Source of the DNA: Candidatus Poribacteria bacterium
Lineage (GTDB): Bacteria > Poribacteria > WGA-4E > WGA-3G
Reading direction: 5' to 3'
NCBI GenBank assembly: GCA_963663765.2
Contig: CAXXUA010000004.1
Span: 288,001 to 352,000, forward strand
DNA length: 64,000 nt
Both the position numbers and the translations under genes were made by a program. Shown piece by piece: positions 1-29,408 of the stretch; position 1 is the stretch's first letter, and the number at the start of each line of letters is the position of its first letter. A model generated the notes under the pieces. That model worked only from the letters and a program-made list of their open reading frames with translations. It did no database searches and was not told the origin of the DNA.

Positions 1-381
1 AGTTAGGGGACAGTGGGAGGGCGCGCTTACAAAGCACGCCTGCAGTTAGGGGGCAGTTGGAGGGCGCGCTTACAAAGCACGCCTGCAGTTAGGGGGCAGG
101 TGGGGGGCGCGCTTACAAAGCACGCCTGCAGGTGGGGGGCAGTTGGAGGGCGCGCTTACAAAGCACGCCTGCAGGTGGGGGGCAGTGGGAGGGCGCGCTT
201 ACAAAGCACGCCTGCAGTTAGGGGGCAGTGGGAGGGCGCGCTTACAAAGCACGCCTGCAGGTGGGGGGCGCGCTTACAAAGCACGCCTGCAGGTGGGGGG
301 CAGTTGGAGGGCGCGCTTACAAAGCACGCCTGCAGTTAGGGGGCAGTGGGAGGGCGCGCTTACAAAGCACGCCTGCAGTTA

Positions 382-469
382 TACCCAATTAACGTGAGTC
401 GTCTTGCTAAGTGTGCGGTTAGGAAACCGCACCTACCGTTGGAAAAAGATAAATTACGTTAATTTGGTA
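382..469. mobile_element. 88-bp MITE (TIR TACCCAATTAACGT/ACGTTAATTTGGTA, TTA TSD) inserted in the REP array
   Basis: Interrupts the unit gcagTTAgggggcag, with TTA at 379-381 and 470-472. Internal hairpin gtgcggttaggaaaccgcac-ctac. Other copies at 32508-32868 and 42189-42276. Confidence 0.9.
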
Positions 470-1387
470 TTAGGGGGCAGTGGGAGGGCGCGGCGGACAA
501 AGCACGCCTGCAGTTAGGGGGCAGTGGGGAGGCGCGCGGACAAAGCACGCCTGCAGGTGGTGGCGCGCTTACAAAGCACGCCTGCAGGTGGGAGGCAGTT
601 GGGGCGCGCGGACAAAGCACGCCTGCAGGTGGGAGGCAGTTGGGGCGCGCGGACAAAGCACGCCTGAAGGTGGGGAGCAGTTGGGGCGCGCGGACAAAGC
701 ACGCCTGAAGGTGGGGGGCAGTTGGGGCGCGCGCGGACAAAGCACGCCTGCAGTTAGGGGGCAGTTGGAGGGCGCGCGGACAAAGCACGCCTGCAGGTGG
801 GGGGCAGTTGGAGGGCGCGCGGACAAAGCACGCCTGCAGTTAGGGGACAGTGGGAGGGCGCGCTTACAAAGCACGCCTGCAGTTAGGGGGCAGTGGAAGG
901 GCGCGCTTACAAAGCAGCCTGCAGTTAGGGGGCAGGTGGGGGGCGCGCTTACAAAGCACGCCTGAAGGTGGGGGGCAGTGGGAGGGCGCGCTTACAAAGC
1001 ACGCCTGCAGTTAGGGGGCAGTTGGAGGGCGCGCTTACAAAGCACGCCTGCAGTTAGGGGGCAGTGGGAGGGCGCGCTTACAAAGCAGCCTGCAGTTAGG
1101 GGGCAGTTGGAGGGCGCGCTTACAAAGCACGCCTGCAGTTAGGGGGCAGGTGGGGGGCGCGCTTACAAAGCACGCCTGCAGGTGGGGGGCAGTGGGAGGG
1201 CGCGCTTACAAAGCACGCCTGCAGTTAGGGGGCAGTTGGAGGGCGCGCTTACAAAGCACGCCTGCAGTTAGGGGGCAGTGGGAGGGCGCGGCGGACAAAG
1301 CACGCCTGCAGTTAGGGGGCAGTGGGGAGGCGCGCGGACAAAGCACGCCTGCAGTTAGGGGGCAGGTGGGGGGGCGCGGACAAAGCA

Positions 1388-1490
1388 CCAAATCAACGGT
1401 ATGAATGCCATTTAGGCATTCCCCGCCTGCGGTTGGGGGTGCGCGGACAAAGCACCAAATCAACGGTATGAATGCCATTTAGGCATTCCC
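1388..1490 (+). mobile_element. Two copies of a 36-nt micro-element (CCAAATCAAC...GAATGCC-ATTTA-GGCATTC-CC) inserted in REP units
   Basis: 1388-1423 and 1455-1490 each split aagca^cgcc relative to intact units; no TSD. Confidence 0.85.
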
Positions 1491-1542
1491 CGCCTACCGT
1501 AGCCGGATTAGTAGAATTACTCAAAGTATTTTTTAATCTTCA

Positions 1543-2076: not shown

Positions 2077-2478
2077 CATTTTTCTCAATTGACACATGTT
2101 TCACAGCATAGCAAATGTATCAGGCTAATTGTTTACATTCCATTTCATAAATCATCCGTAGTGTAGGGTCACCGTTGCCTGCGATGGATATCCATTTGCC
2201 ATGAATATACCATTGTAAAGTGATGTTCCTTTGGAATACCTTTAGACGAATATGCACATGGTAAATGCTATGATTCATACCGTTGATTTGGAGAAAGCCA
2301 AAGGCACATGCATACCTAAGATATGGTGATTCCGACAAAACCTATGATACAGTCTACACACATGAAAAATATTTACAGCCCAGATGTTACTTTTATATGA
2401 TGTTTTATTTCTGTATGTGCTATACTAATTACAATTACATTTTGACTATTCACATAGACACTAAACTCAAAACATATA

Positions 2479-13730: not shown

Positions 13731-16700
13731 CTATTTCAATAATGGTTTAAGCCAACGCATTGCAGTTTCAAATTCCATTCCTGCTCGATCAGCATAATCC
13801 CGCACCTGATCCTCACCGATTCTGGCAATACTGAAATACTTTGATTCTGGATGAGAGAAATACCAGCCACTAACAGAAGCAGCTGGAGACATCGCCAAAC
13901 TTTCGGTAAGTGATAACCCAATATTCTCTGTAACATTCAATAAATCAAACAGAATTCGTTTTTGGTTGTGATCAGGACACGCAGGGTAACCAGGTGCAGG
14001 ACGAATTCCACGATATTTTTCTCCTATCAATGCATCGTTAGCTAACACTTCATCATTGGCATATCCCCATATTTCTATTCGGACTATCTGATGCATGTGT
14101 TCAGCAAATGCCTCTGCTAAACGATCTGCCAATGCTTTCGCCATGATGCTGTTGTAGTCATCATGTTTTTGCTCAAACTGAGCACACAGTTCAGTTACCC
14201 CAATTCCTGTAGTAACTGCAAATGCTCCGATATAATCCTGATGGTTAGTCTCCTTAGGTGCAATGTAGTCCGCCAAGCTTAAGTTAGGTCGAGAAAAGGG
14301 CTGCTCTGTCTGTTGTCTAAGATGAGGTAATGTCGCAACAACTTTTCTTCTATCTTCGTCTGCATATATCTCTGTAACTTCTTCTACACCGTTCGCAGGT
14401 AAGATTCCAACAACTGCCTTTGCACACAGACTCTTCTTTTTAACAAATTCATTGAGTAGTGTTTTCCCATCATCCAAGAGTTTCTGAGCTTCTACTCCCA
14501 TTTCGACACTTTTCAAAATTTTTGGATATTTGCCTTTTAACCCCCACGTTGTGAAAAATGGTGTCCAATCAATGTAATCAATTAGTTTTTCTATAGGAAA
14601 TTCATCAAACACCTTTAGACCAGTCTTATGTGGTTTAGGCGGAATATATTCACTCCAGTTAGTATTGAATTTTCGCTGCTGAGCAACTTTAATAGATAGT
14701 AATTTTGTTTGTTTCCTATTTTTTTCACGCTGTTCACGTATATCATTATATTCATCACGTGTCTTATCAACGAATTGCTGTTGTTTATCCACACTCATCA
14801 AATTGCCAACAACACCTACACTTCTCGAGGCGTCTTTGACATGGATCGTTGATCCGCCATAAACAGGCTCAATTTGTACAGCAGTGTGTATCTTAGAGGT
14901 GGTTGCACCACCGATGAGAAGAGGTATTGTGAAACCTTTTCTTTCCATTTCTTCAGCAACATAAACCATCTCATCTAACGACGGTGTTATAAGTCCGCTA
15001 AGTCCAATAATATCAGCGTTTTCCTTTCTTGCAGTAGCTAAAATATCTTCTGCAGGTACCATCACACCAAGATCAATGATGTCGTAATTGTTACATCCCA
15101 GAACAACACCAACGATATTCTTCCCTATGTCATGCACATCACCCTTTACTGTAGCCATCACAATCTTTCCTCGAGACTTAATAGCACCTTCAGACTGTTC
15201 CTTTTCAATGTATGGAATAAGGTGAGCAACTGCTTTTTTCATCACGCGCGCACTCTTTACAACCTGAGGAAGGAACATCTTACCGTCACCAAAGAGTTCA
15301 CCGACACGATCCATCCCATTCATCAATGGTCCCTCAATGACCTGAATGGAACGTTCATGCTTAAGACGTGCCTCCTCTGTATCATCTTCAATAAATTCAA
15401 TTATACCCTCAACAAGCGCATGACTTAATCGTTCTTCCACTGGCAGTTTGCGCCACTCTTTATTTACTTTTCTCTTTTTACCCTTACCCTGTAAAGTACT
15501 AGCCAAATTCGTAAGTCTGTCAGTAGCATCTTCTCGTCGATTGAATATAACATCCTCAACTGCTTCCAATAGGTGTTTCGGTATGTCATCATAAACAGCA
15601 AGTTGTCCTGCATTGACAATACCCATATCCAATCCAGCATTGATTGCATGATAGAGGAAAGCAGCATGCATCGCTTCGCGAACCGTGTCATTGCCTTGGT
15701 AAGAAAATGATATGTTACTAACACCACCACTAACCAATGCATGTGGACAGGTAGACTTAATCTCACTACACGCTTGAATGAAAGCAAGCGCATATTCGTT
15801 ATGCTCAGCAATACCTGTAGCAACTGTAAGGATATTTGGATCAAAGATAATATCTTCAGCAGGAAATCCGACTTCTTCAGTTAACAATTTATACGCTCTT
15901 TGACATATCCCTACTTTTCGTTCAAGCGTGTGAGCTTGACCTTTCTCGTCAAATGCCATGACGACAACTCCTGCACCATATTTCCTAATCAGACGTGCTT
16001 TTTCTAAGAAGTCTTCCTCACCCTCTTCTAAACCTATTGAGTTGACTACACCTTTACCTTGAACACATTCTAAACCTGCTTCAATTACCTCCCATTTACT
16101 GGAATCAAGCATGATAGGGACGCGACTGATATCCGGTTCTGCTGCTATCAGGTTTACGAACTTGACCATAGCGTTTACACCATCCAATAAACCTGCGTCC
16201 ATATTGATGTCAATCAGTTGTGCACCGTTCTCAACTTGATCACGTGCCACCTCCAATGCAGTCTCATAGTCTTCATTTTTAATTAGTCTTGCAAACTTAC
16301 GTGATCCTTCTACATTTGTCCTTTCACCTACGTTTACAAAGAGAGAATCGGGTGTAATATTGAATGCTTCCAATCCACTCAGTCTACATGCCCGTTCTAT
16401 CGGTTCAGGAATACGGGGTTGATGTTCTGCAGCAACTTTTGCAATAGTCTCTATGTGTTCTGGTTGGCTACCACAGCAACCACCGACGATATTTACAAAT
16501 CCGTTCTTCGCAAATTCATGTATCCAGTCACCCATTTCTTCAGGGGTTTGTGTGTAGTGTCCAAGTTCATTCGGGAGACCAGCATTCGGATAGCAGATGA
16601 TGGGTATGTCAACGATTTTGGACATTTCTGCTAAATACGGCCGTATCTGCTCTGCACCAAAACCGCAATTCAATCCTGCTGCAAGCATATTGACATGCCG

Positions 16701-17411
16701 AATAGAATTCCAAAATGCTTCAACCGTCTGTCCTGAAAGATTACGTCCACCGCCACCACTTCTGTCAGAAGATACGATAATAGGAATATCAATATCCCGT
16801 GTTTCAGATAGAGTTTGAATTGCAAAAAGTGCAGCTTTGCAGTTGAGGGTATCCATCACCGTTTCAACAAGCAGTAAATCAACACCACCATCTATCAATC
16901 CTTCTGCTTGCGTTGTATAAGCAGAAACAAGCTGAGAAAAGGAAATATTTCTATATCCAGGATCGTTCACATCTGGAGAGATTGTACAACTGCGATTGGT
17001 GGGTCCCATACTGCCTGCAACAAAACGCGGTTTCGTTGGAGTAGAATTCTCATCAACTACTTCACGCGCAATTTGTGCAGCTGCGTAGTTTACTTGATAG
17101 GCAGTATCCTCAAGTTGGTAATCCGCCATTGAAACGGAAGTACTTGTGAAAGTATTTGTCTCAATGATGTCTGCACCTGCGTGACAGTAATTGGTGTGTA
17201 TTTCACGAACAATCTGTGGTTGGGTAATTGAGAGTAGGTCGTTGTAACCTTTGAGTTCACAAGGATGAGAGGAAAACTGATCACCACGAAAATCTTCTTC
17301 GGTAAGTCTATATGTCTGTAACAGGGAACCCATTGCACCATCAAGCACAAGGATACGTTCTTTTAGTAATTGATTTAAAAGTGTTATCCGTTCAGAATTT
17401 GCCATGCTCAT
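13731..17411 (-). CDS. metH: Cobalamin-dependent methionine synthase
   Basis: Four-domain 1226 aa protein: GLNC and GGCCG Zn ligands, [16 protein letters not shown]12 motif, [14 protein letters not shown]. Start could be 17405. Confidence 0.98.
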
Positions 17412-17595
17412 CTCTTGTATATACCAATATCATACCCATATATTATAACACGGAATAAGCATTAATTCCATTTCTTTTGGTATCACATGGATGTGTAAAG
17501 ATTTGCTCATAATACTCATTCCCATTATAGTGCATGTCTCTGTACCCTTCAATCTCGCAATTAATCTGTTACGGTGAGGTACAGAATTCGCGTAA

Positions 17596-17926
17596 TACCC
17601 TCTTGTCCATGTCTTTAGTTCCGTAGGAACGATATGTTTATAGAAAATGTTTTCAGCCCCAATAGAGTTCCGTAGGAACGACATAGAAGAATACACATAT
17701 CGTCCCTACGGGACTAAAGACATGGGGAGGGTATTCGTTATCTATAAACATATCGTCCCTACCAAATCAACGCCAAATGCGCGTGTGGCATTTGTCGGGA
17801 CTAAAGAGCGATATTCAGTTTTCAATAAATTAAAATTGATGCGTAAAATTCGGTTAGGAAACCGAACCTGGGTATTCACTTTCAGTAAATCTCAAGAACA
17901 GAAAACTCTTAAAACTGAATAACCCT
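17596..17926. mobile_element. Partial CAGGG-TIR MITE copy containing a 34-nt micro-insertion (17762-17795)
   Basis: Homologous to 34619-34917; ends aaaactgaataaccct. Confidence 0.8.
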
Positions 17927-18051
17927 CCTAATGATTCAATTCAATTGACACACCAACAAAAAAATGATAAAATATAACTGCAATATTTGAATAAGATTAA
18001 GCATCAATTGCAACAAATCTTCATAAGGATAGAAGGGGTAATACATTAAGA

Positions 18052-19356
18052 ATGAGTAAAATGATAGGACGATTTATAGGCATGTTTGCAGTTACTTTGT
18101 TGATAGGATATTTTGCTGCTGCCGATGACTGGGCGCAATGGCGTGGAACAAATAGAGACGGTGTTTGGAAAGAAACTGATATCATAGATAAATTTGAAGG
18201 TGAAGAAATACCCATACGATGGAGTGTGCCAATTGGAAGTGGATATAGCGGTCCGACCGTCGCCGATGGACGTGTCTATGTCACTGACAGACTCACAAGA
18301 CCAAAACAGGTTGAACGTGTTCTCTGCTTTGATTGGGAATCTGGAGATGAAATCTGGACATATACCTATGATTGCATATATAAAATTGAATATCCTGTAG
18401 GTCCGAGGGCAACGGTGACTATACATGACGGACTCGCTTATGCATTAGGTGCTATGGGACATTTACACTGCTTTGATGCAGCAACTGGTGACATCAAATG
18501 GAAAAAAGACCTAAATACAGAATACGATATCAATATGCCTATATGGGGTATTGCATGCGCACCACTCGTTGAAGATGACTTACTCATCGTCCAAATAGGC
18601 GGAAAACCAGAAGCTTGCGTGGTCGCGTTTGACAGAAAAACTGGTGAGGAGAAGTGGCAAGCACTTGAAGATAACGCTTCTTATGCAGCCCCGATTATAA
18701 TTGAACAGGCTGGAAAACGCGTCTTAATATGCTGGACCGGTTGGAATGTTACCGCACTCAACCCAAAAACAGGTGAATTGCATTGGAAATACCCCATGCC
18801 ACCAACACGATGGGAAATCGGTATCGCAACACCAATCTATAAAAACAATCAGCTATTTGTAACTAACTTCTATGAAGGTGCAGCACTACTAAAACTATCT
18901 ACTGATAAGCTGGATTTTGAACTCGGTTGGCATAGAAAAGGTAAGGATGAAAAAAATACGGATGCACTGCAAACAACTATGTCAACACCAATATGGATCG
19001 GAGATCATATATATGGTGTAGACAGTTATGGAGAATTGAGGTGTCTTGACGCACAGACTGGAGATCGAGTATGGGAAGACCTATCTGCTGTACCGGTCGC
19101 ACGATGGAGTACCATTCAATTTGTCCAAAATGAAGACAAAGTCTGGATGTTTAATGAACGCGGTGAATTGCTGATTACTGAACTTTCTCCAGAAGGACTT
19201 AACATTATCAGTCGTGCCAAATTGATTAAACCGACGCGAGGCCAACTGAACCGAAGAGACGGGGTGACATGGGCGCATCCAGCATTCGCATATAAACACG
19301 TCTTCGCACGAAATGACAAAGAGCTTGTTTGTGCAAGTTTAGAAAAAACAAAATAG
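18052..19356 (+). CDS. Secreted PQQ-binding-like beta-propeller protein
   Basis: Signal peptide then DDWAQWRG; 'CFDAATGDIKW' Trp-docking repeats; paralog of 46490-47803. Confidence 0.88.
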   Translation: MSKMIGRFIGMFAVTLLIGYFAAADDWAQWRGTNRDGVWKETDIIDKFEGEEIPIRWSVPIGSGYSGPTVADGRVYVTDRLTRPKQVERVLCFDWESGDEIWTYTYDCIYKIEYPVGPRATVTIHDGLAYALGAMGHLHCFDAATGDIKWKKDLNTEYDINMPIWGIACAPLVEDDLLIVQIGGKPEACVVAFDRKTGEEKWQALEDNASYAAPIIIEQAGKRVLICWTGWNVTALNPKTGELHWKYPMPPTRWEIGIATPIYKNNQLFVTNFYEGAALLKLSTDKLDFELGWHRKGKDEKNTDALQTTMSTPIWIGDHIYGVDSYGELRCLDAQTGDRVWEDLSAVPVARWSTIQFVQNEDKVWMFNERGELLITELSPEGLNIISRAKLIKPTRGQLNRRDGVTWAHPAFAYKHVFARNDKELVCASLEKTK

Positions 19357-19372
19357 AACTTCTGAGGTAAGA

Positions 19373-22300
19373 ATGGACTCAAAACTCATTACTGGAAATG
19401 GCGGGATCACGCACCCGCGAATTGACCTACAGCAAGGACAAAAACTTCACGGATTTGAAGTCAAAACCATCACTCCTATTGATGAATTGTGTGCAGTGTC
19501 CATACAACTCACACATCCACGCAGCGGTGCAAGTCTGTTACACCTCTATACAGACGACACCAGAAATCTATTTGCAATCAGTCCAATAACACCATCATTT
19601 GATGATACTGGATTACCCCATATCCTTGAGCACTGTGTCATGAGTGGATCTCGTAAATATCCTATAAAAGGCGGTTTCAACGAGGTCATGAAGATGAGTT
19701 TAGCGTCTTATGATAGTACGAATGCAATGAATTGTATCGATTATGGCTTATACTTCGCTTCAAGCAATCTAAAAAAGGACCTGTTTAATCTGGCTGAAGT
19801 CCACTTTGATTCCGTTTTTCATCCTCTTCTTAAAGAGGAGACCTTTAAACGTGAAGGGCATCACCTTGAAGTTATTGATCCAGATCAACCAACAGTAGAT
19901 CTAAAAATTAACGGGATCGTCTACAATGAAGTGAAAATTGGCTTAACTGATCCAGGATACTGTTTAAATTCTTCTGTAAAGAATAACCTTCTACCAGATA
20001 CCTGCTATGTCAACAATGGTGGTGGAAACCCACTCTTTATCCCAGATTTGACTTACGAACAACTGAAAACCTACCACCAAACATACTATCATCCACACAA
20101 CAGTTACTTTTTCTTCTACGGAAATATACCAACACAAGACTATCTCTTATTTCTGGCTGATAAATTGGCAGCTTTACCAAAGTCAGGTACCAATGTGTTA
20201 CCACATCCACTACGACCAGAAATCACACATCAGTCAAGTTGGAAATCTCCGCGAACTGTGAAGGATACTTACCCTATAAGTACGAATGAATCACTCACAG
20301 AAAAGACCTACTTGATGTTGTGTTGGCTCATCGGTGATGCAACAGATCCTGAGACTACTATCTTGTGCGGATTACTCCGCAGGATACTACTCGGTAACGA
20401 AGGAGCGCCACTACGTAAGGCAATTATCAAATCAAAACTTGGTACTGACATACGTTACAATATAGGCGGTGGAAAGTTAGGACCGAATCAAACATTCAGT
20501 GTCGGAATAGTTGGAAGTGAATCAGATCGCGCTAATACTTTCACAGAATTGGTCTTGGATACACTTGTTCAAATTGCAGACTCAGAACTTGACCAAGAAC
20601 TTATAGAAACAGCATTCCGCCAAATCACCTATGACTATCTGGAAGTCACTCCGAGTTACCCTTTTCAGATGGTTATGCGTGTTATGGATACATGGATATA
20701 CCAAAAAGAACCCACCAAATTTCTAAAGATGAGGAAACACCTTGCTGCTGTACTTCAACGTTGGAAGCAAAATTCACAGCTATTTAATGAATTGATCCGT
20801 GAGTGGTTACTTGACAATCCACATCGGTTGACAACTATCCTCACTCCTGACCATGATATGCAGGCAAGACTTGATGCTCAGGAAGAAAATCGTCTGAAAG
20901 CTATCCGCGCACAACTTACAGATGAACAGATGAAACAGATTGCTGCCGATGCCGCTGAACTTGAACATCTTAGTGGTCAACCTAATTCACCGGAGGAATT
21001 AGCAAAGTTACCACAACTGCATATCACAGATCTACCCAAGAAACCCCTTCATATTCCTACCACTCTTGAAGAGATTAACGGTTGTCCTGTGTATCTAAAC
21101 AATATTTTTTCAAACGGTGTGAACTATCTTGTGTTGAACCTTGATTTACAAGGATTGCCGCAACACCTTTGGCAGTATCTGCCCAGTTATACCGATGCAA
21201 TTGACAAACTTGGTACTGGCAAGATGAATTTTGAACAGATGGCACGTCGTAAATCATCAGCCGCAGGAGGATTAGGATGTACACCAAACTTTACAACGCA
21301 TGCACTTAATCCAAAACAATTAGTGTGTGGTATAAAATTTCATCTAAAAACACTTGATGGAAAAATTGAGGATGCGTTGAACGTTCTGCATGACCTGATA
21401 TTTGATATTAACCCACACGATAAAGATAGATTCCACAACGTACTCAATCAAACTGTAACTTCTAAACAAGACTATTACTGGGCACATGTCGCCAACCATC
21501 GCGCAGCCAGTGGACTGTCACATCGCGGTTTTCTCAAAGATATTGTCTACGGACTACCCCGCTTACGCACAAGTGAAATGTTACTCAATAGATTTGACGA
21601 TGCTTATGAAGACCTGACATGTAAAATTGAACAGATTCGAAATTTTTTATTAAACAGAAATCGTATATCAGCAAGTTTTACAGGATCTGTAGCAGCTTTT
21701 GAGGTGTTTCGTGATCGGTTTGCACAATGGATTCACGCCATGCGTGATGAACCAACCAAACCAGTACCGATAGGCTTTAAACAATTTGAGACACCACCAT
21801 GTGATGGCTTAGCTGCTCCTATACCAATTGCACATTGCACAAAGATGATTCCAGCTCCACACTATTCACATCCTGATTCTGTTCTCTTGACAATCGGTTC
21901 ACATATCTTGTTAAATGATTACATGATTCAAGAAATTCGATTAAAAGGAAATGCTTACGGTTTTGCTTTCTCATATAACCCGTTTGAATCCTTGATCTAC
22001 CAAGGCTCGCAACAGGATCCCCACATCGCACGTACTCTTAATGTGTTTGCTAATACAGTTGACTATGTTAAAAAGACGGAATGGACACAGACTGATATTG
22101 ACCGCGCAATTATTGCTAAGTCATCAGACTATCAGCAAACTATTCGTCCCAATCAAGCCTCATCTATTGCACTAACTCACCATCTTGAGGGACAAACACC
22201 AAAAATTATTGAAGAAAAATATGACCAACTGCGCTGCGCAACTCCAAAGGAAGTAAAACGGGCTCTCCTTCAAGTTCTTGAAGAAAACCAAGATAAAGCA

Positions 22301-22384
22301 CCGATCTGTGTCATAGCAAGCCGAGAGAAATTGGAAGAAGAAAATCAGAAATTAGAGCAACCGCTTGTAATTCAGGATATATAA
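19373..22384 (+). CDS. M16C insulinase-family (presequence protease-like) metallopeptidase, divergent paralog
   Basis: HILEH inverted Zn motif, KREGHH, IVYNE, IRLKGNAYG; colinear with the next gene. Confidence 0.9.
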   Translation: MDSKLITGNGGITHPRIDLQQGQKLHGFEVKTITPIDELCAVSIQLTHPRSGASLLHLYTDDTRNLFAISPITPSFDDTGLPHILEHCVMSGSRKYPIKGGFNEVMKMSLASYDSTNAMNCIDYGLYFASSNLKKDLFNLAEVHFDSVFHPLLKEETFKREGHHLEVIDPDQPTVDLKINGIVYNEVKIGLTDPGYCLNSSVKNNLLPDTCYVNNGGGNPLFIPDLTYEQLKTYHQTYYHPHNSYFFFYGNIPTQDYLLFLADKLAALPKSGTNVLPHPLRPEITHQSSWKSPRTVKDTYPISTNESLTEKTYLMLCWLIGDATDPETTILCGLLRRILLGNEGAPLRKAIIKSKLGTDIRYNIGGGKLGPNQTFSVGIVGSESDRANTFTELVLDTLVQIADSELDQELIETAFRQITYDYLEVTPSYPFQMVMRVMDTWIYQKEPTKFLKMRKHLAAVLQRWKQNSQLFNELIREWLLDNPHRLTTILTPDHDMQARLDAQEENRLKAIRAQLTDEQMKQIAADAAELEHLSGQPNSPEELAKLPQLHITDLPKKPLHIPTTLEEINGCPVYLNNIFSNGVNYLVLNLDLQGLPQHLWQYLPSYTDAIDKLGTGKMNFEQMARRKSSAAGGLGCTPNFTTHALNPKQLVCGIKFHLKTLDGKIEDALNVLHDLIFDINPHDKDRFHNVLNQTVTSKQDYYWAHVANHRAASGLSHRGFLKDIVYGLPRLRTSEMLLNRFDDAYEDLTCKIEQIRNFLLNRNRISASFTGSVAAFEVFRDRFAQWIHAMRDEPTKPVPIGFKQFETPPCDGLAAPIPIAHCTKMIPAPHYSHPDSVLLTIGSHILLNDYMIQEIRLKGNAYGFAFSYNPFESLIYQGSQQDPHIARTLNVFANTVDYVKKTEWTQTDIDRAIIAKSSDYQQTIRPNQASSIALTHHLEGQTPKIIEEKYDQLRCATPKEVKRALLQVLEENQDKAPICVIASREKLEEENQKLEQPLVIQDI

Positions 22385-22443
22385 CAAATACTTATTGACA
22401 ATCTACTTGTTAGATGTCCGAATAAATAATACTGGAGGAAAGA

Positions 22444-25400
22444 ATGGATACAAAACTCGCAGCTGAAAATGGCGGGACATTACAGCCGCCAATTGAACTA
22501 CAACAAGGACAAAACCTACACGGATTTGAAGTCAAAACTATCACTCCTATAGATGAACTACGAGCAGTAACAATTGAGTTAGTACATCATCATAGCGGGG
22601 CACGGTTACTTCATCTCTATACAGACGACACAGAAAACCTTTTCTCAGTCAGTTTCCCAACACCCCCATCAGACGACACAGGTACTCCCCACATACTTGA
22701 GCATGCTGTCTTAGCAGGATCACATAAATTTCCTGTTAAAGAACCATTCTTTGAAATGATAAAGATGAGCATGGCTACCTTCATTAACGCCATGACAAGT
22801 TCAGACCATACTCTGTACCCCGTAGCAAGCAATGTCAAAAAAGACTTATTTAACCTTGCAGAAGTATACTTTGATGCCGTATTTCACCCATTATTAACAG
22901 AGGAAACTTTCAAACGCGAAGGACACCATCTTGCTCCTGTAGATCCTGAGAACCCAACTGGTGATCTGAAGATTACCGGCATTGTCTACAACGAAATGAA
23001 AGGTGCTTTTTCTAACCCAGAATCACGTTTATATCGCACTTCATCAAACAAACTACTACCCGATACACTCTATGCGAAAGAATCCGGGGGAGACCCTGAT
23101 GCAATTCCTGAACTCACTTATACACAACTCAAGACTTTCCACGAAACCTTTTATCATCCCAGTAACGGATTTTTCTTCTTATATGGTGATATTCCAACAA
23201 GTGATTACCTATCATTTCTTGCTGAAAAACTTGAAAAAATACCAAAAAGCGAAAAAATTGCTTCATTAAAACCACTTAATCCTGATGCTACACGACAACC
23301 ACGATGGAAATCTCCACAGACTGTTAGTGATACATATCCCGTTTCACCCGATGAATCACTTTCTGAAAAAACATACCTGATGCTAAGTTGGCTCATCGGT
23401 GATGCTACGGATCCTGAAGATGTTGTCATGAGTTATATTCTCAGTTTAATACTATTCGGTAATGAAGCAGCACCACTAAAGAAAGCAATAATTGACTCAA
23501 AATTAGGAACAGATCTGATCTCTTCAGGTGTCGGTTCAATTGGTCCGAACAGTACCTTTTATGTTGGCATCAAAGGAAGTGAAAAAGACCGAACTGAAGC
23601 ATTTACATCATTGGTAACCAATACTTTGACACAACTTGCTGAATCAGTGTTCGAAAGCCAATTAGTAGAAGCAGCTTTTCAACAGTCAACCTTATATTAC
23701 CAAGAAGTTTCACCAAATTTCCCACTTCGCATGCTATTCCGAGTGATCAACGCTTGGATATATGAAATCAACTCCGACACATTCCTAAGAATGGGAGAGA
23801 ACCTCGCTACTATCCGTAAACGATGGGAAGAAAGTCCTGCTATTTTCAACGAAATGATTCAGGAACGTTTGTTGGATAACCCTCACAGATTGACCAGCAT
23901 TCTTTCACCTGACCCAACCATGCAAGCAAAAACTGATGCTGAATTGGAGAAACGTACTAAGAACATTCGGGCACAACTCAACGACGATCAAATGCTAAAG
24001 ATCGCTGCTGATGCTGCTGAATTAGACCGTATGAATGGACAACCAAATCCACCTGAAGCTTTAGCAAAGCTACCGCAGCTTAACGTCAACGACCTTCCCG
24101 ATAAACCGAAACATATACCGACAACCATTGACAAGGTTTCTGATCGAGACCTACTACGCAGTGACGTTTTCGCAAATGGGGTCAACTACTTTGTTCTGGA
24201 TATAGATATTCGCGGATTACCAAAACACCTGTGGTCCTATTTACCGAGTTATATTGATGCTATCGACAAACTCGGTGCTGCTGAAATGGATTTCACACAG
24301 ATGGCTCTCCGAAAATCTGCTTTTACTGGCGGCATCGGTTGTGGTGTTGGATTTCGTACACACGCATCGGATGCTAAGCGATCACTTCAAAACGCATACT
24401 TCCATCTCAAAGCACATGATAGCAAAATGAACGAAGCACTTGAAGTCTTACACGATCTCGTTTTTTCTGTAAACCCGCGCGATACAGAACGACTACATGA
24501 TATTATGATTCAAGCTGTCTCAGCGTACCGCACAGGTATGGTTCAAGACGGTTCAGGCACTGCAATCCATCATGCAGCCCGAGGACTTTCACCACAAGGA
24601 CACCTTTCTGAAATCGTCCACGGTCTACCACAACTCAGACAGAGCGAAACCTTACTCAACGGTTTTGACGAACTAAATACCGATCTTATGAGTCAAATAG
24701 AAGAGATAAGAGATTTCTTGCTGAATAGTCAAAGGGTGACTGCAGGATTTGTAGGTTCCGACTCCGCATACACAACAACACGTGATAAACTTAGTGCTTG
24801 GTTGAATGAAATGCGTGATGAACAGGTTGAAACAGTACAGATTGAATATCTACCCTATGATACACCCCCACGCGAAGGGTTAGCAGGACCAATTCAGATC
24901 GCACACTGTGCACATGTTATGCCAGCACCACACTACTCACATCCTGATTCAACATTGATCTCAATTGGAACACACCTCGTGCGGATGGATTATATATTGA
25001 GTGAAATCCGCTTTAAAGGTAATGCCTACGGTGCAAGATTGTCATACAGTGGCTTTGACAGCGCACTATATCAATCCTCATTCAGAGATCCACATGTAGC
25101 ACGCACAATCAATGTATTTGAGCAGACAATAGATTACATCAAGCAGGTAGAATGGACACAAACCGATATTGACCGAGCTATCATTTCATCTGCAAAAGAT
25201 GCTGAAAAACCGATTCGTCCAAGTCAAGCTGTAAGCAATGCACAGTGGTATCACATTAGCGGACAAACAAACGAAATGCGCGAACAACGTTATACTCAAC
25301 TCCGAAGTGCAACCCCAAAAGAAGTAAAACGCTCATTAATTCAACTTTTTGAAGAAAATCTGGATAAAGCAGCTGTTTGTGTCGTTTCAAGTCGTGAAAA

Positions 25401-25461
25401 ACTTGAAGCCGCAAACAATGAATTGTCAAAACCTCTTGAAATTGAAGACATATTAACCTAA
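22444..25461 (+). CDS. M16C insulinase-family (presequence protease-like) metallopeptidase
   Basis: GTPHILEHAVLAGSHKFPVKEPFF, TFINAMT, IVYNEMKG, SGGDP, IRFKGNAYG, SFRDP; RBS ggagg. Confidence 0.93.
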   Translation: MDTKLAAENGGTLQPPIELQQGQNLHGFEVKTITPIDELRAVTIELVHHHSGARLLHLYTDDTENLFSVSFPTPPSDDTGTPHILEHAVLAGSHKFPVKEPFFEMIKMSMATFINAMTSSDHTLYPVASNVKKDLFNLAEVYFDAVFHPLLTEETFKREGHHLAPVDPENPTGDLKITGIVYNEMKGAFSNPESRLYRTSSNKLLPDTLYAKESGGDPDAIPELTYTQLKTFHETFYHPSNGFFFLYGDIPTSDYLSFLAEKLEKIPKSEKIASLKPLNPDATRQPRWKSPQTVSDTYPVSPDESLSEKTYLMLSWLIGDATDPEDVVMSYILSLILFGNEAAPLKKAIIDSKLGTDLISSGVGSIGPNSTFYVGIKGSEKDRTEAFTSLVTNTLTQLAESVFESQLVEAAFQQSTLYYQEVSPNFPLRMLFRVINAWIYEINSDTFLRMGENLATIRKRWEESPAIFNEMIQERLLDNPHRLTSILSPDPTMQAKTDAELEKRTKNIRAQLNDDQMLKIAADAAELDRMNGQPNPPEALAKLPQLNVNDLPDKPKHIPTTIDKVSDRDLLRSDVFANGVNYFVLDIDIRGLPKHLWSYLPSYIDAIDKLGAAEMDFTQMALRKSAFTGGIGCGVGFRTHASDAKRSLQNAYFHLKAHDSKMNEALEVLHDLVFSVNPRDTERLHDIMIQAVSAYRTGMVQDGSGTAIHHAARGLSPQGHLSEIVHGLPQLRQSETLLNGFDELNTDLMSQIEEIRDFLLNSQRVTAGFVGSDSAYTTTRDKLSAWLNEMRDEQVETVQIEYLPYDTPPREGLAGPIQIAHCAHVMPAPHYSHPDSTLISIGTHLVRMDYILSEIRFKGNAYGARLSYSGFDSALYQSSFRDPHVARTINVFEQTIDYIKQVEWTQTDIDRAIISSAKDAEKPIRPSQAVSNAQWYHISGQTNEMREQRYTQLRSATPKEVKRSLIQLFEENLDKAAVCVVSSREKLEAANNELSKPLEIEDILT

Positions 25462-25524
25462 ACAAGAATTGTAGAATATCCATTACACGACTTCTACATA
25501 ATAATTAAAGGGAGAACAAAAACA

Positions 25525-26889
25525 ATGAAGAAATTTGGTGTTATACTGATGTGTATCTGTGCATTAGCAATAATCACAGTGTATACAACAAAAACTATTG
25601 CTGATAGTCATAAAGTAAAAAAAGAACAGACAGTCGACTATGAAAATAATTGGCATCACTGGCGGGGTCCAGATACTAACGGTACTGCTGTCAATGCTAA
25701 TCCACCAACAACATGGAACGAAGACAAAAACGTCCGATGGAAAGTACCTATTGAAGGTTTAGGACACGCAACACCTATCATTTGGAAAGATAAGATCTTT
25801 GTCCAAACTGCTATTGAGAGTGCACCAGCAAAGGTGGAATCTGAACCTCCACCTGAAGAAAATCAACGTAGAAGAAGACGAAGAGCTTTACCTACATATA
25901 AATTTGATATTATATGTTTCGACAGAAGTAATGGGGATGTCCTCTGGCAAAAAACACTACGCGAAACCGTACCACATGAAGGCATGCATAACGATTCAAG
26001 TTTCGCTTCTAATTCTCCTGTTACGGATGGCGAATACATCTATGCATACTTTGGATCCCGAGGACTCTACTGCTTAGATATGATGGGTAATATCAAGTGG
26101 GAAAAAGATATTGGAACAATGAGGAAAGCTGGAACTTTCGGCGAAGGAAGTTGTCCCATTATACACGACAATACTATCGTCATTCTACAGGACCACGAAG
26201 ACCAATCCTTTATCACTGCACTTGATAAACGTACCGGAGACGAAATATGGAAGATACTCCGCGACGAACGTACAACATGGACATCACCTATCATCGTTGA
26301 ACATAATGAAATTTCACAAATTATCGTTCCAGCAACAAACAGAACACGCAGCTACGACTTAACAAACGGTGAAGTCATCTGGGAATGTAGTGGAATGACC
26401 CGAAACGTAATCCCATCACCACTATACAAGGATGGACATGTATATATCATCAGTGGTTTCCGAGGTGCGTCACTGCAAGCAATTAACTTGGATCTCGCTA
26501 AAGGTGATATTACCGGTACAGAAGCAGTCGTATGGGAATACGATCGCGACACACCTTACGTCCCTTCACCCATGTTGAGTGGTGACATTATCTATTTCCT
26601 AAAAGGTAATAACGGTATTCTCACAGCAATTGATAGAAATACAGGGCAGGTACATTTCGGACCTGAAAGGGTGAATGGCATATCTGGTGTCTATTCATCA
26701 ATCGCAGGTGTCTCGGATCGTGTCTACATCGCAAGCCGCAACGGCACTGTCGCAGTGCTAAAACACGGACCGACGCTTGAAATTATCGCGCAGAATAAAC
26801 TTGATGATAGTTTCAACGCATCACCCGTAATCGTCGGTTCAGAGTTATTCCTGCGTGGCAAAGAACATCTCTACTGCATCGCAGAGTAA
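25525..26889 (+). CDS. Secreted PQQ-binding-like beta-propeller protein
   Basis: Signal peptide, NWHHWRGP, ASNSPVTDG, PYVPSP; paralog of 29657-31051. Confidence 0.88.
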   Translation: MKKFGVILMCICALAIITVYTTKTIADSHKVKKEQTVDYENNWHHWRGPDTNGTAVNANPPTTWNEDKNVRWKVPIEGLGHATPIIWKDKIFVQTAIESAPAKVESEPPPEENQRRRRRRALPTYKFDIICFDRSNGDVLWQKTLRETVPHEGMHNDSSFASNSPVTDGEYIYAYFGSRGLYCLDMMGNIKWEKDIGTMRKAGTFGEGSCPIIHDNTIVILQDHEDQSFITALDKRTGDEIWKILRDERTTWTSPIIVEHNEISQIIVPATNRTRSYDLTNGEVIWECSGMTRNVIPSPLYKDGHVYIISGFRGASLQAINLDLAKGDITGTEAVVWEYDRDTPYVPSPMLSGDIIYFLKGNNGILTAIDRNTGQVHFGPERVNGISGVYSSIAGVSDRVYIASRNGTVAVLKHGPTLEIIAQNKLDDSFNASPVIVGSELFLRGKEHLYCIAE

Positions 26890-26925
26890 AAAGTAATTTT
26901 ACTTAGTAGACTTTGGAATTAATTG

Positions 26926-26971
26926 GACACCAGTGTTAGGTTCGGTTAGGAAACCGAACCTAACACTGGTG
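26926..26971. repeat. Long hairpin built on the ggttaggaaacc REP class
   Basis: acaccagtgttaggttcggtt-agg-aaaccgaacctaacactggtgt; may also serve as terminator. Confidence 0.7.
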
Positions 26972-27065
26972 TTGCAGCACAAACCTTTAGTTTGTTTCCA
27001 CATCTGTACATACTAAATGAAGACTAATAAATTAGGTAATTTTATCTAACCCACCCTGGTATGCG

Positions 27066-27282
27066 GGGAATGAAAAAAGAAGCATGCGCTTATGGCATGC
27101 TCCATGATTCATACCCGGGGAAGGCTAAAAGGCATTCATACCCGGGGAATGCCTAAATGGCATTCATACCTTTGATTTCTTGATTTGGCGTTTTGTAAGT
27201 GCGTTATAAACCATAAATATTATGAACATTACATCATTTTCGTAAGAATTCTTGATTAAATCAAAAAACAGCGTAAGTCCTG
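27066..27282 (-). mobile_element. Degenerate CAGGAC-family MITE containing self-nested micro-elements
   Basis: Three gggaa(t/g)g...cattcatacc starts and two ttgattt ends (27066-27188); ends gcgtaagtcctg at 27282. Confidence 0.65.
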
Positions 27283-27430
27283 AAAGATTCTGATACGATA
27301 TTTTACAAATTCATCAAATTTTTCAAAATTAAAACACACCACTATTCATGTTTGAAATACCATATTTCTGTAGGAGCTTCCACTCGGTTATTACACGAAG
27401 GATGCTCCAGTAAATAAACAAGGATTTAAA

Positions 27431-29254
27431 ATGACACGTTTTCTTACGATTATTGGTATCGGAATTATAATATTCACTTGTTCAAGTTGTTCGACGGATG
27501 AAGATCCTTCAGATGTAGATTCCATAATGATACCTGACACTTCAGAAGAAGCCCCGAATATAATAGAAATGTTGGGTGTCGCTCTTCTCAGCGATGATGT
27601 CGTGTTAGAAGATATGCATGCAATGGAAATTGAAGAGTTTGAAGATAAAACACCTGTGCAAATTGTAACTGTTCTTGAAGGTACGCAACGTGTGACAATC
27701 AATGCACACTTTCGGGGAATACGTAATTTCGGATTCGGGTTTCCATTGTATGAATGTGAACTTATGTCTGAAGATGTTGAGAAAATGGGGGGTATCGCAT
27801 CAGGTATGTCAGGAAGTCCAGTAGGTCCCCCTGGAAAAGTAATGGGTGCACTAGCTTACGGCGACTACTTCGCTTCTGCTCCAACACGGTTCTGGGTGAC
27901 ACCAATAGACGCAATGGAGTCATTACGGGAACATCAAACCTTCGGTGATGAATTAGAAGAACGCCTTGCGGCTGCACCATCTGGAAAGATAAATTCTGTA
28001 TATGCCCCAGTGAAAACACCGCTAATGATTACTGGTATCAATCCAAGCAGACTTGAACACCTGTCAACATATCTTAAAGGTTCACGATTCGATCATTTTG
28101 ACATTTTTGCTGGTATAGGTGGAGTTCCTGCAGCACCCGTAGTGGATAGAAAATTGATGGCGGGAGATATGATTGGGGTTGCTATTGCAACAGGAGATGT
28201 CGTCAATGCTATCGGGTTCGGTACATTAACGCAAATCTATGATGATGATACTTTTGTTGCATTTGGACACCCGTTTTCATCATTTGGTGACGGCAAGACC
28301 TCGCTACCAGTATATAGAGCAGTTGTCAATGGACTTGTACCAAATCTCCAAAGTTCTTACAAATCTGTATCGGCTTATGGTGACCCAATCGGCACTATCA
28401 CGAAAGACCTTGTACCAGCGATAGTTGGACAAATCGGGGTCATACCAGAAACGATACCATTCAATATAACATATCAGAGAGCTGAAAAAGTCATAAAGAA
28501 AGAACACGAAGTCTCTTATGGATACGAACTGTATATACCAATAATTGCTGCAGTTACGCAGGACGCAATCCGTTTAGAAACAAGTCCAACCACAGTTGAA
28601 GTGACTATCAAACTTGAATTCAAAGAGTCACAGAATAGCTACTCAGAAACATTTATAAGCGTTTCTGATGACTCATATTTTGATATTCTCTTTAGAACAC
28701 AAAGAATTATTTCTACTTTTACGGATATTTTCAATAACACAACTGAGAAAGCTACATTGACATCGGTAGAGATGACAATTGAAGAGAAACCAGAAATTAT
28801 GCTCGCGACAATTCAGGAAGTGATTATGTCTGATGAAATTGTTCGTGGCACATCCACCACTGTTACTGTTGTTTTGCTGCCTCATTGGAGCGCCATTCAG
28901 GATGAAGAACGGAAAATAGAAAAGCAGGTAACACTTGAGATCCCTCAGGATCATCCTTTGGGTGATGCTTGGATCACTGTTTACGCTGAAGATTATTATG
29001 ACCCATTTTTTAGCATTTTCTTTGATGACGATTCTGATTCGGATTCTGATATGCTACCTGAGAACCTTGATGAACTTATTGAACAACTGGAAGAAAACCA
29101 GAACGAATCCCCCAGCATCATTACAATAGTTCTTTCGGATGAGATTATTTCTACGTATGATATAATCTCATCTGATGAACCTCAAAACACCATTACGGTC
29201 AATGGTTTTATTGTCACTGGGAGAAAGTCAGAATCAGTTAAGATTACACAATAA
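27431..29254 (+). CDS. SpoIVB-type S55 serine peptidase, probable lipoprotein
   Basis: GIASGMSGSPV nucleophile motif, GALAYG, VAFGHPF; hydrophobic N-terminus with Cys; acidic C-terminus. Confidence 0.8.
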   Translation: MTRFLTIIGIGIIIFTCSSCSTDEDPSDVDSIMIPDTSEEAPNIIEMLGVALLSDDVVLEDMHAMEIEEFEDKTPVQIVTVLEGTQRVTINAHFRGIRNFGFGFPLYECELMSEDVEKMGGIASGMSGSPVGPPGKVMGALAYGDYFASAPTRFWVTPIDAMESLREHQTFGDELEERLAAAPSGKINSVYAPVKTPLMITGINPSRLEHLSTYLKGSRFDHFDIFAGIGGVPAAPVVDRKLMAGDMIGVAIATGDVVNAIGFGTLTQIYDDDTFVAFGHPFSSFGDGKTSLPVYRAVVNGLVPNLQSSYKSVSAYGDPIGTITKDLVPAIVGQIGVIPETIPFNITYQRAEKVIKKEHEVSYGYELYIPIIAAVTQDAIRLETSPTTVEVTIKLEFKESQNSYSETFISVSDDSYFDILFRTQRIISTFTDIFNNTTEKATLTSVEMTIEEKPEIMLATIQEVIMSDEIVRGTSTTVTVVLLPHWSAIQDEERKIEKQVTLEIPQDHPLGDAWITVYAEDYYDPFFSIFFDDDSDSDSDMLPENLDELIEQLEENQNESPSIITIVLSDEIISTYDIISSDEPQNTITVNGFIVTGRKSESVKITQ

Positions 29255-29257
29255 ATA

Positions 29258-29331
29258 CAGGACTTACGCAATAAACAGTAGGCGGAGAATGTATAAATGG
29301 CATTCATACAGTTGTTGATTTGGTAAGTCCT
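29258..29331. mobile_element. Short degenerate CAGGAC MITE containing a micro-element
   Basis: caggacttacgca ... gtaggcg[gagaatg...ggcattcatac...ttgatttgg]taagtcct. Confidence 0.6.
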
Positions 29332-29408
29332 TGTTCAAACAATTTGGTTTTGCAAACTCAATACCAATTAAAAATAAACTTTCATTAACACCATCAACTG
29401 ATAATTCT

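Follow-up and report, generated by a model that had tools for sequence, protein, structure and literature searches.

The 64-kb window analyzed here, i.e., the whole stretch of DNA presented above, corresponds to positions 288001 to 352000 of contig C4 in a Candidatus Poribacteria genome (G000; 6.35 Mb, 15 contigs, 41% G+C, 97.8% complete) and carries several copies of a repeat unit of 34 to 36 nt, which consists of a 9-nt head, CAAATCAAC, and a G...C hairpin with a stem of 7 to 9 bp and a loop of 4 to 7 nt. Few DNA elements with the look of mobility are as small as this head-plus-hairpin family, which is very probably an insertion-competent micro-element. Three of the copies, all on the forward strand and assigned to subfamily A, are the same 36-nt string, CCAAATCAACGGTATGAATGCCATTTAGGCATTCCC, i.e., CCAAATCAAC followed by GGTAT-GAATGCC-ATTTA-GGCATTC-CC; they are found at positions 1388-1423, 1455-1490, and 29506-29541, always with aaagca before and cgcc after the copy. 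The first two occupy, respectively, the penultimate and the last units of a 43-nt tandem array of a host sequence resembling repetitive extragenic palindromic (REP) elements, in which ∼30 neighboring units are empty. The 67-nt units that contain them (positions 1362-1428 and 1429-1495; repeat family D17) are 96% alike, and the pair may have come from a single insertion followed by duplication of the host unit. The third copy splits the site aaagca^cgcc within a copy of a 123-nt miniature inverted-repeat transposable element (MITE; window positions 29408-29567). Another A copy, of 35 nt, with a TTTT loop and the head TCAAATCAAC, lies on the reverse strand at positions 50980-51014 in another copy of this MITE (ccggcg^cgcctacaaagca), where it occupies the host motif's second CG, a site class shared by 35 copies in the genome.

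Subfamily B is represented in the window by a 34-nt copy at positions 17762-17795 of the forward strand (head + GCCAAATGC-GCGTGTG-GCATTTGT), flanked by gtcccta and cgggac and thus placed in the 3-nt loop region of the host hairpin GTCCC-TAC-GGGAC, an empty unit of which lies 53 nt upstream, at ∼17700-17722. The other copies in the window are on the reverse strand: a decayed A copy at positions 29285-29323, whose head side joins the MITE terminal repeat caaggactta and whose 3′ side joins cgcctactgtt; a 124-nt composite at positions 27065-27188, inserted after ...cttacaaaacg of a REP-like host motif, in which a lengthened head (CCAAATCAAG AAATCAAA) precedes three tandem A hairpin units, the last of them with a nested unit; and a degenerate A copy at ∼2233-2291 (ends approximate) whose stem harbors a second, nested small unit (type CCAAATCAACGGTATGAAT^CAT...). 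An earlier note on this DNA had named the copies beginning at 1388, 1455, 17762, 29285, 29506, and 50980, all of which are present, and had overlooked the composite and the degenerate copy. It also took intact sister repeats as the empty sites, and the window indeed holds 48 uninterrupted copies of the host sequence AAAGCACGCC and 5 of GTCCCTACGGGAC. Heads with at most one mismatch are overrepresented in the window: there are 22, whereas 100 shuffles gave 7.6 on average and never more than 15. The host array at window positions 1-1500 comprises ∼35 tandem 43-nt units (GCGCGCTTACAAAGCACGCCTGCAGTTAGGGGGCAG...), which on the opposite strand read as a GTAG-like word plus hairpin (GGCGTGCTTTGTAAGCGCGC). 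Tandem 91-nt repeats (positions 379-560, 32414-32868, and 42095-42367) contain the word CCAAATTAAC, one mismatch away from the head, as well as the hairpin GTGCGGTTAGGAAACCGCAC; no hairpin follows this head-like word.

In the whole genome, exact heads are found 454 times in the form CCAAATCAAC and 550 times in the form CAAATCAAC; the reversed head, used as a control, occurs 68 times, never with a hairpin. A genome-wide catalog of heads with a perfectly paired stem of 6 bp or more behind them comprises 504 copies: 403 of subfamily A, 66 of subfamily B, 15 of subfamily C (hairpin GTCAGAAGC...GCTTCTG), 12 of subfamily B′ (hairpin GCCGAATGC...GCATTCG), and 8 others. The B copies bear out the second subfamily, with the same head and another hairpin, that had been proposed from the window. 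The boundaries of the unit are ambiguous by a single C: the junction can be read as N^CG, with a unit CCAAATCAAC...CCC, or as C^G, with a unit CAAATCAAC...CCCC. In the C^G reading, the unit has a 9-nt head and a hairpin that begins with G and ends with C, with a stem that extends to 9 bp. The loop consists of 7 nt in subfamilies B, B′, and C and of 4 to 5 nt in subfamily A (GGG-TAT-GAATGCC / GGCATTC-CCC).

Further stems, such as GCAGCATGC, GCTGAATGC, GTCAAATGC, and GCCAAATAC, follow the same head in a 400-kb sample of species G022. A compensation test on the 34-nt class, for which G000 and the G022 sample supplied 101 copies with 29 distinct sequences, revealed double compensatory changes at five of the nine stem positions (2, 3, 4, 5, and 7), and 95% of the stem cells are paired, as compared with 82% (maximum, 88%) after shuffling of the 3′ arms. 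The predicted DNA fold has an energy of −6.9 kcal/mol (z, −3.75) for the A unit and of −5.4 kcal/mol (z, −1.0) for the B copy of the window. Since the head is unchanged across the subfamilies while the stems are compensated, what is conserved is the sequence of the head and the shape of the hairpin. A single long perfect palindrome at C4:107367, GTAGGT-CCAAATCAACGGTATGAAT...ATTCATACCGTTGATTTGG-ACCTAC, in which the head and half of the stem are paired with their complement, may represent either an ancestral form or the product of an inverted duplication; head-to-head cases of this kind number only 6. The second small unit mentioned above is headless, ∼30 nt long (CATGG-AGCATGC-CATACGC-GCATGCT-TCT and variants), and sits inside the A stem after GGTATGAAT (e.g., at window positions 2233-2291 and 27065-27115). 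Judging by its first 12-mer, it is present in 27 + 11 copies genome-wide, of which 27 start with GGTATGAATCAT after the head CCAAATCAAC, and its loop corresponds to the B-type loop in reverse complement.

The junctions were characterized by joining 10 nt from each side of a copy in 18 registers and seeking the exact 20-mer elsewhere in G000. The test covered the 370 copies that are not followed by another unit, leaving out 126 array-internal copies and 8 others. On excision, 253 of these 370 copies left an exact 20-nt sequence that exists elsewhere as an empty site; in the control, with three extra bases trimmed from each side, only 4 did. The lengths of the inserts are quantized: 36 nt (134 copies), 34 nt (58 B and 9 C copies), 35 nt (16 copies), and 43/44 nt (27 copies, with one extra 8-nt head unit). 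In agreement with the earlier note, there is no target duplication at the exact empty sites, where only the one-C ambiguity is seen. Seven site classes occur in both the filled and the empty state: AAAGCA^CGCC (192 filled and 1,079 empty), the second CG of that motif, GCG^CGCTTACAAAG (35 and 206), GTCCCTA^CGGGAC (121 and 602), the B loop GCG^CGTATGG (62 and 63), AAAAT^CGGGGTTG (15 and 92), the loop of GTAG-type REPs, CGACC[AG]G^ (26 and 541), and the MITE end GTAG..GCG^GGGTCTC (19 and 23). Additional site classes are GTAGGT^CGGGTAGAGCG, GGATTTA^CGGATTTA, and the 3′ end of the element itself. A single ancestral position for all copies, named in advance as speaking against a mobile element, is not what is seen: there are ∼10 site classes in G000 and more in other species. 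Nor is a CG preference missing. CG is found at the junction in 8 of the ∼10 nonredundant site classes (as grouped by the authors), against a share of 3.9% among all dinucleotides, and C...G flanks are seen in 94 of the 101 copies of the 34-nt class. An adjacent CG, previously listed as a constant feature, is strongly preferred but not absolute.

At AAAGCAC^G (with at most one mismatch), 217 junctions are in the forward orientation and none are in reverse. Since CG is palindromic and the orientation is still 217:0, it is one strand that is read. The main host motif folds as GGCG.GCTT-ACA-AAGC.CGCC with a C/A mismatch, to which both insertion sites are adjacent, and in the second host, GTCCC-TAC-GGGAC, the insertion falls at the border of loop and stem. 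Other targets are the B loop, the GTAG-REP loop, the hairpin GGGGTT-GAAA-AACCCC at its 5′ foot, and the hairpin of the element itself at its 3′ foot; insertion of the element at the CG of its own 3′ end produces head-to-tail arrays that repeat at exactly one unit length. Nesting is common to several of these contexts, with A units found in B loops, in MITE copies, and at their own 3′ ends and B′ units found in A arrays. Most copies (466 of 504) lie outside long open reading frames (ORFs), and their orientation relative to the flanking ORFs is unbiased (74 versus 89 and 63 versus 78). On a regional scale, the segment C6:300-375 kb, a hot region among several genes for WD40-repeat proteins, carries 44 copies on the forward strand and 3 on the reverse strand, and other contigs of G000 show similar strand runs; the GC skew of this genome is too noisy for placing the origin or terminus of replication.

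The 123-nt MITE (ends CAGGACTTACGCA...TGCGTAAGTCCTG) carries the main host motif and is present in 274 copies with both ends, so that filled and empty sites can be compared on a common backbone. The motif is empty in 146 of these copies, filled at the first CG in 74, at the second CG in 22, and at both in 13; the remaining 19 carry other insertions, 2 of them in addition to a filled first CG. The lengths of the MITE copies fall into the corresponding classes of 122 to 124 nt (140 copies), 158 to 160 nt (35 copies; +35/36), 165 to 167 nt (10 copies; +43/44), 183 to 186 nt (13 copies), and 193 to 196 nt (18 copies). When copies were compared over the ∼100-nt backbone, the share of filled nearest neighbors was 0.246 at the first site, versus 0.336 (standard deviation, 0.06) in 500 shuffles, and 0.164 at the second site, versus 0.134 in shuffles. 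Filled and empty copies are therefore intermixed on the backbone, which indicates repeated insertion or loss rather than coamplification alone; seven filled copies even have an empty paralog with an identical ∼100-nt backbone. Each main site is also occupied by several loop variants of subfamily A, with ATTTA (65 copies), GCGTATG (28), and TTTT (22) at AAAGCA^. One to five extra 8-nt head units are present in 162 of the 504 copies; these, as well as the 27-nt headless hairpin units, are added by local slippage. Of the 563 A-type hairpin arms, a head precedes 421 and another unit directly precedes 91; the other 51 mostly stand behind degenerate heads or a B′ unit. Headless units therefore do not establish new sites. 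Copies of the family arose both by insertion and by hitchhiking on their hosts. As to the mobility of the hosts, the MITE copy at window positions 29404-29571, with its nested unit, is absent from a 7.7-kb contig of a related strain, in which position 29403 joins 29568, and the ATTC found on both sides of this copy suggests a 4-bp target duplication.

Within the Poribacteria, the 21-mer of subfamily A (at most one mismatch) was found in all 24 congeners sampled, in 1 to 171 copies, as compared with 257 in G000, and in none of 16 genomes from three other families of the order. The 11-mer comprising the head plus G occurs 13 to 519 times per genome in all 38 genomes of the genus, 1 to 24 times in 57 sister-genus genomes, and 0 to 17 times in 56 others, with 0 to 8 occurrences of the reversed control; the family is enriched only in this genus. 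The counts of heads and of A copies differ between species, e.g., 519 heads and 78 A 21-mers in G022 and 42 heads and one A copy in G003, so the subfamily makeup varies by species. Of 80 listed exact 19-mer matches in the species collection, 79 come from Candidatus or uncultured Poribacteria and one from an "uncultured bacterium"; a lone match in a viral contig was rejected as a chance 19-mer that lacks the hairpin. Among 87 loci from other Poribacteria, an intact A unit is followed by CCCCG in 51; the AAGC[A/G]^ site that dominates in G000 is used in 1 and the B-type loop site in 19. An alignment of 30 loci from other species shows A units in many other hosts, nearly always before CG. In 39 other species of the genus, the flanking coding DNA is 64 to 87% alike to that of G000, and gene order is not kept. 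Against this background, the near identity of A units across species points to continued activity, selection, or transfer.

The combination of uniform ends, a conserved head, a shaped hairpin, a two-base target, strict orientation, and absence of duplication argues for single-stranded DNA (ssDNA) that is handled by a protein reading both the head and the hairpin. Insertion properties of this kind are known from HUH enzymes, and seamless, strand-specific insertion is established for the IS200/IS605 family. The unit consists of a conserved single-stranded head, (C)CAAATCAAC, and a G...C hairpin whose stem sequence can vary provided that pairing is kept, and it inserts seamlessly, in one orientation, at C^G (= N^CG) in or next to unpaired positions of hairpin repeats. 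Its number of copies has grown through new insertions, hitchhiking on the hosts, and tandem duplication of the 8-nt head and 27-nt hairpin units. While the data establish the architecture, the exact empty sites, the CG bias, the orientation, the recurrent insertion or loss, the role of the head in opening new sites, and the restriction to the genus, the mechanism is a proposal: the unit would move as ssDNA, and a trans-acting protein would read the head by its sequence and the hairpin by its shape and would cut and rejoin DNA at C^G beside a hairpin, by HUH-like or some other chemistry. This full statement, that of a genus-specific noncoding micro-element moved as ssDNA by a trans-acting protein, is given about an even chance of being correct.

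Candidate mobilizers were sought among the Y1_Tnp, Y2_Tnp, IS110, RVT_1, Resolvase, and GIY-YIG families. The six Y1_Tnp matches in G000 comprise four IS605-type genes, one REP-associated tyrosine transposase (RAYT), and a fragment that lies next to the main host repeat where a contig ends; phmmer found an additional RAYT-like fragment. The IS605-type copies are located at C5:688.6 kb, C3:287.7 kb, C5:550.9 kb, and C5:353.1 kb, one of them being interrupted after the Y1 gene, and the ORF that follows the Y1 gene in these copies looks like a TnpB candidate. The intact RAYT gene (C4:621.3-622.1 kb) is embedded in arrays of GTAGGAGGGAACTCCGATTCCCGAC-type GTAG REPs and is flanked by such REPs only. 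A second RAYT-like gene, at C5:1704.4-1704.7 kb, breaks off at ∼60 codons beside units of the second host, and the 43-nt repeat of window positions 1-1500 also fills the DNA upstream of the RAYT-like gene fragment at the end of C10. IS110 (PF01548) had no matches in G000, the control search being positive in 6 of 14 genomes, and RVT_1 had none in G000 either. Y2_Tnp (PF04986) gave no match in G000, but its control search was silent in all 14 genomes, which makes this negative uninformative. The Resolvase search retrieved five copies of a 1.78-kb element whose ends, (A/G)GGTAGAGTG... and ...ATATCATCGG, are unrelated to the family. These copies (C5:772 kb, C4:419 kb, C15:122 kb, C13:490 kb, and C2:138 kb) are at least 99.3% alike and encode a 202-aa serine recombinase; the element ((A/G)GGTAGAGTG...ATCATCGG) looks like a recently active IS607-type transposon. 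Four GIY-YIG matches were obtained, three in ORFs of 253, 582, and 625 aa and one in an 87-aa ORF that a stop interrupts; the family flanks none of them, and from their lengths and the N-terminal position of the domain, they can be read as UvrC-like. In the genus, Y1_Tnp matches are present in 36 of 40 genomes and RVT_1 matches in 18 of 40. The mobilizer is none of the recognizable Y1 transposases, reverse transcriptases, IS110 enzymes, serine recombinases, or small GIY-YIG nucleases of G000.

A long, gene-bearing element with the same ends, which the earlier note had recommended looking for, was not found in the genome-wide search, and neither this search nor those for enzymes yielded an associated gene, in keeping with the note's view that the mobilizer was unknown. 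The 131 heads without a known hairpin comprise chance matches, decayed copies, and more hairpin variants and include no gene-bearing element. Four heads followed by other sequence were considered as traces of a long parent element and rejected, as each turned out to be an A copy into which a classical MITE had inserted. This MITE (inverted ends GGTGTGTAAAGTTTTTGCAC, 9-bp duplication AACGGTATG) is found inside the A unit at C13:649206, C4:1092275, C10:15977, and C5:1822184 and carries tandem 53-nt units of the second host, so nesting goes both ways. Among 36 ORFs located between neighboring copies, the sole recurrent family is repeat rich, and its one member scanned against Pfam proved to be a WD40 protein; the other five of the six ORFs scanned included a sugar transferase, an IS4/5 DDE transposase, one with a weak subthreshold match, and two with no match. 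No Rfam family was matched at threshold in the window.

With regard to known systems, the closest analogs, likened by description, are the small dispersed repeats (SDRs) of cyanobacteria. SDR1 to SDR8, reportedly described by Elhai and coworkers in 2008 in Nostoc punctiforme and its relatives, are said to be 21 to 27 nt long, nested, and shaped as compensated hairpins. Like SDRs, the head-plus-hairpin units measure tens of nucleotides, are dispersed and lineage restricted, have hairpins that are compensated between families, are nested in other repeats, small transposons, and their own copies, and have no known mobilizer, and one SDR family is likewise tied to a short CG-containing site. They differ from the SDRs in length (34 to 36 nt versus 21 to 27 nt), in the 9-nt unpaired head common to all subfamilies, in a simple CG target in many hosts, and in their poribacterial origin, SDRs being reportedly restricted to heterocyst-forming cyanobacteria. 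Judged by the SDR hallmarks, the poribacterial family shares the nesting (62 filled versus 63 empty B loops) and the compensated structure and falls outside the size range of 21 to 27 nt. SDR5 is bound to HIP1, a short CG-containing site (PMC5861425), and the mechanism of SDR mobility is still termed unresolved in passages of later papers (PMC3116915 and PMC5861425). In G000, HIP1 occurs 58 times, approximately the number expected by chance by the authors' estimate; the genome is poribacterial rather than cyanobacterial, and the idea that the unit might be a cyanobacterial repeat was rejected for that reason. Of the two analogies drawn in the earlier note, that with the SDRs therefore holds, whereas that with the palindrome-associated transposable elements (PATEs) of the IS200/IS605 family does not, given the unrelated ends and the single hairpin.

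The resemblance to REPs and REPINs moved by RAYTs lies in a short conserved tag beside a hairpin, the intergenic location, and hundreds of copies, and ssDNA chemistry would explain the oriented, seamless insertion. However, the tag is CAAATCAAC rather than GTAG or CGTC, the GTAG REPs of G000 form a separate family that serves as a target, no RAYT gene is flanked by the family, and the family is present in genomes that lack a Y1 match. It also inserts as singlets: among 504 copies, only 6 pairs stand head to head (within 120 nt) and only 1 stands tail to tail (within 60 nt). In Pseudomonas, the REP doublet is the mobile unit, and singlets were not found to excise (Bertels and Rainey 2011, PMC3116915); insertion of REPs within other small palindromes has been reported as well (Di Nocera et al. 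2013, PMC3733652). With IS200/IS605 elements and PATEs, the family shares the lack of target duplication, oriented insertion, and a hairpin near one end. PATEs are longer than 100 nt, carry hairpins at both ends, and have ends in common with full-length insertion sequences, and IS200/IS605 elements target a 4- to 5-nt word on one flank; the present family, by contrast, has one hairpin and a dinucleotide target, and the four IS605-type copies of G000 have unrelated ends. IS91 elements and Helitrons insert inside a host dinucleotide without duplication, lack terminal inverted repeats, and have a conserved 5′ end, a 3′ hairpin, and occasional carryover of the 3′ flank. All these features have counterparts in the family, which is, however, ∼100 times smaller than such rolling-circle elements. 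Ssn nucleases are small proteins that act on an oriented NTS/SRM hairpin repeat, reading it as ssDNA and cleaving it a few nucleotides before the hairpin, on its 5′ side (Chenal et al. 2025, PMC11893778). Both repeats are oriented hairpins with nonpalindromic flanks, but their motifs have nothing in common, the family does not flank any small GIY-YIG gene, and insertion of Ssn repeats into each other is not described (PMC11893778). Unlike the true MITEs of G000, the family has neither terminal inverted repeats nor target duplications; there is no DEDD transposase match in G000 that would connect it with IS110/IS1111, and its ends are unrelated to those of the five serine recombinase (IS607-type) copies. 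It is a member of none of the REP/REPIN-RAYT, PATE, MITE, IS110, IS607, and Ssn/SRM groups. A search of the literature on Poribacteria repeats and small nested hairpin repeats, with bioRxiv and PDF supplements outside its scope, found no published description of the family.

Several observations weigh against the proposed mechanism. None of the enzyme searches revealed a partner gene associated with the family, which leaves the enzymatic step as something that we infer. No Y1_Tnp gene in G000 is flanked by the family, and the ends of the IS605-type copies differ from it; genomes G001 (4 contigs) and G024 (1 contig) have ∼100 heads each and neither Y1_Tnp nor RVT_1 matches. Subfamily B is clustered in its host (0.469 versus 0.157, a value reached in 0 of 300 shuffles) and subfamily C weakly so (0.31 versus 0.13; 4 of 300 shuffles), and therefore much of their number comes from host amplification. 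In the comparison of window positions 15500-31500 with related-strain contigs from four public runs, the contigs end at repeats, so no presence or absence of individual units was obtained. Two site classes are at G^G rather than CG. Finally, three classes of junctions are not clean. In GTAG-REP loops with the empty form GGGA or AGGA, the filled form is [G/A]G + unit + G, one base short, although a rare loop variant, [A/G]GGG, would give a clean junction. A second REP type has GATCG-CT-CCTAC when empty and GATCG + unit + CCTAC when filled, and at a locus of another species, ACCG-CA-CCTACC becomes ACCG + unit + CG-CCTACC. The bases 3′ of the unit at these junctions match common donor contexts (CCCCGGGT... 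and CCCCGCCTAC), as in a join at short homology, and such junctions are more readily explained by recombination or template switching than by a precise cut.

The unclean junctions, which may reflect recombination, template switching, or occasional read-through beyond the 3′ end, are the main support for the view that the units are copied during replication without any dedicated enzyme, i.e., that a nascent strand stalled at a hairpin repeat moves to a donor copy at 1 to 2 nt of homology (C on the left and CG or G on the right), copies the unit, and then returns. The preference for CG would then merely reflect the CG that follows every donor copy. This view, which we regard as unlikely, accounts for the one-base ambiguity at the junctions, for the donor flank CCCCGGGT... 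in REP loops and in a region of CAGGATT-type repeats, for the donor flank CCCCGCCTAC in the second REP type and at one site in another species, for the tandem duplication of the 8-nt and 27-nt subunits by slippage, and for the empty searches for partner genes. It does not fit the uniform boundaries at many unrelated sites and in many species, the conservation of the head while the hairpins turn over with compensation, the failure of headless units to establish new sites, or the strict 217:0 orientation, and homology of 1 to 2 bases would permit far more variety of junctions than is seen. Another account would deny the family any mobility of its own, with a few old insertions coamplified with MITEs, REPs, and arrays and then spread or erased by gene conversion. 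The clustering of B by host, the enrichment of particular A loop variants at particular sites, and the many copies within tandem arrays of the hosts are what it would predict. Yet it cannot produce a CG bias, and it is at odds with the ∼10 site classes in G000 and the further ones in other species, with site usage that differs by species, with several loop variants at each site, with a filled state that is unclustered on the MITE backbone, and with filled/empty pairs that have identical backbones. Pure coamplification is already contradicted for subfamily A and is considered highly improbable for the family as a whole.

Two other explanations invoke enzymes of known types. If the units were REP-type elements moved by a RAYT (Y1/HUH), with the head as the equivalent of the GTAG tag and a cut at a fixed dinucleotide beside the hairpin, then the layout of tag and hairpin, the intergenic location (466 of 504 copies), the high copy number, and the lineage specificity would all be expected. 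One intact RAYT gene and two fragments are present in G000, Y1_Tnp matches in 36 of 40 congeners, and HUH chemistry yields seamless, strand-specific insertion. Nevertheless, this explanation, too, is doubtful, somewhat more so than copying by replication: a GTAG or CGTC tag is absent, the intact RAYT gene is flanked by GTAG REPs and not by the family, inverted doublets are rare (6 head-to-head and 1 tail-to-tail among 504 copies), and three genomes rich in A units (51 to 111 copies in G001, G024, and G010) have no Y1_Tnp match. A route through an RNA copy and reverse transcription has reportedly been proposed for the cyanobacterial SDRs. It would be consistent with compensatory changes in the hairpin and with a 3′ junction that is constant (…CCCC|G) next to a 5′ junction that is more variable (0 to 2 C, sometimes G, and varying numbers of 8-nt head units). 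The lack of an RVT_1 match in G000 and its presence in only 18 of 40 congeners, the unbiased orientation relative to flanking ORFs (74 versus 89 and 63 versus 78), and the lack of any Rfam match in the window make this route very unlikely. Beyond the reading favored here, that of ssDNA moved in trans by a head- and hairpin-reading protein, a bolder one can be proposed only tentatively: the 34-nt unit might be the whole cis requirement of a new kind of ssDNA transposition, carried out by an unrecognized genus-specific protein or by a co-opted housekeeping enzyme that cuts and joins at C^G and is neither a Y1 or Y2 HUH enzyme, a reverse transcriptase, an IS110 enzyme, a serine recombinase, nor an Ssn nuclease; the cyanobacterial SDRs might likewise be due to activity of this class.

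What is new in this family is the shared head, the CG target, and its occurrence in another phylum, whereas the size class, the nesting, and the compensated hairpin are known from SDR-like repeats. With elements of this size, mobile DNA reaches its lower limit. The family is unusually readable, as it combines one fixed head with interchangeable hairpins, offers exact filled/empty pairs by the hundred, has a two-base target and a strict orientation, and is lacking in a sister genus. As a 34-nt oligonucleotide represents the whole substrate and comparative gene content can name candidate proteins, the mechanism is directly testable, and a protein that cuts and rejoins ssDNA at C^G beside a hairpin would, if real, be of practical use. 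For the uncultured sponge symbionts that harbor them, these elements reshape the intergenic DNA, and short-read assemblies of their genomes break at every copy.

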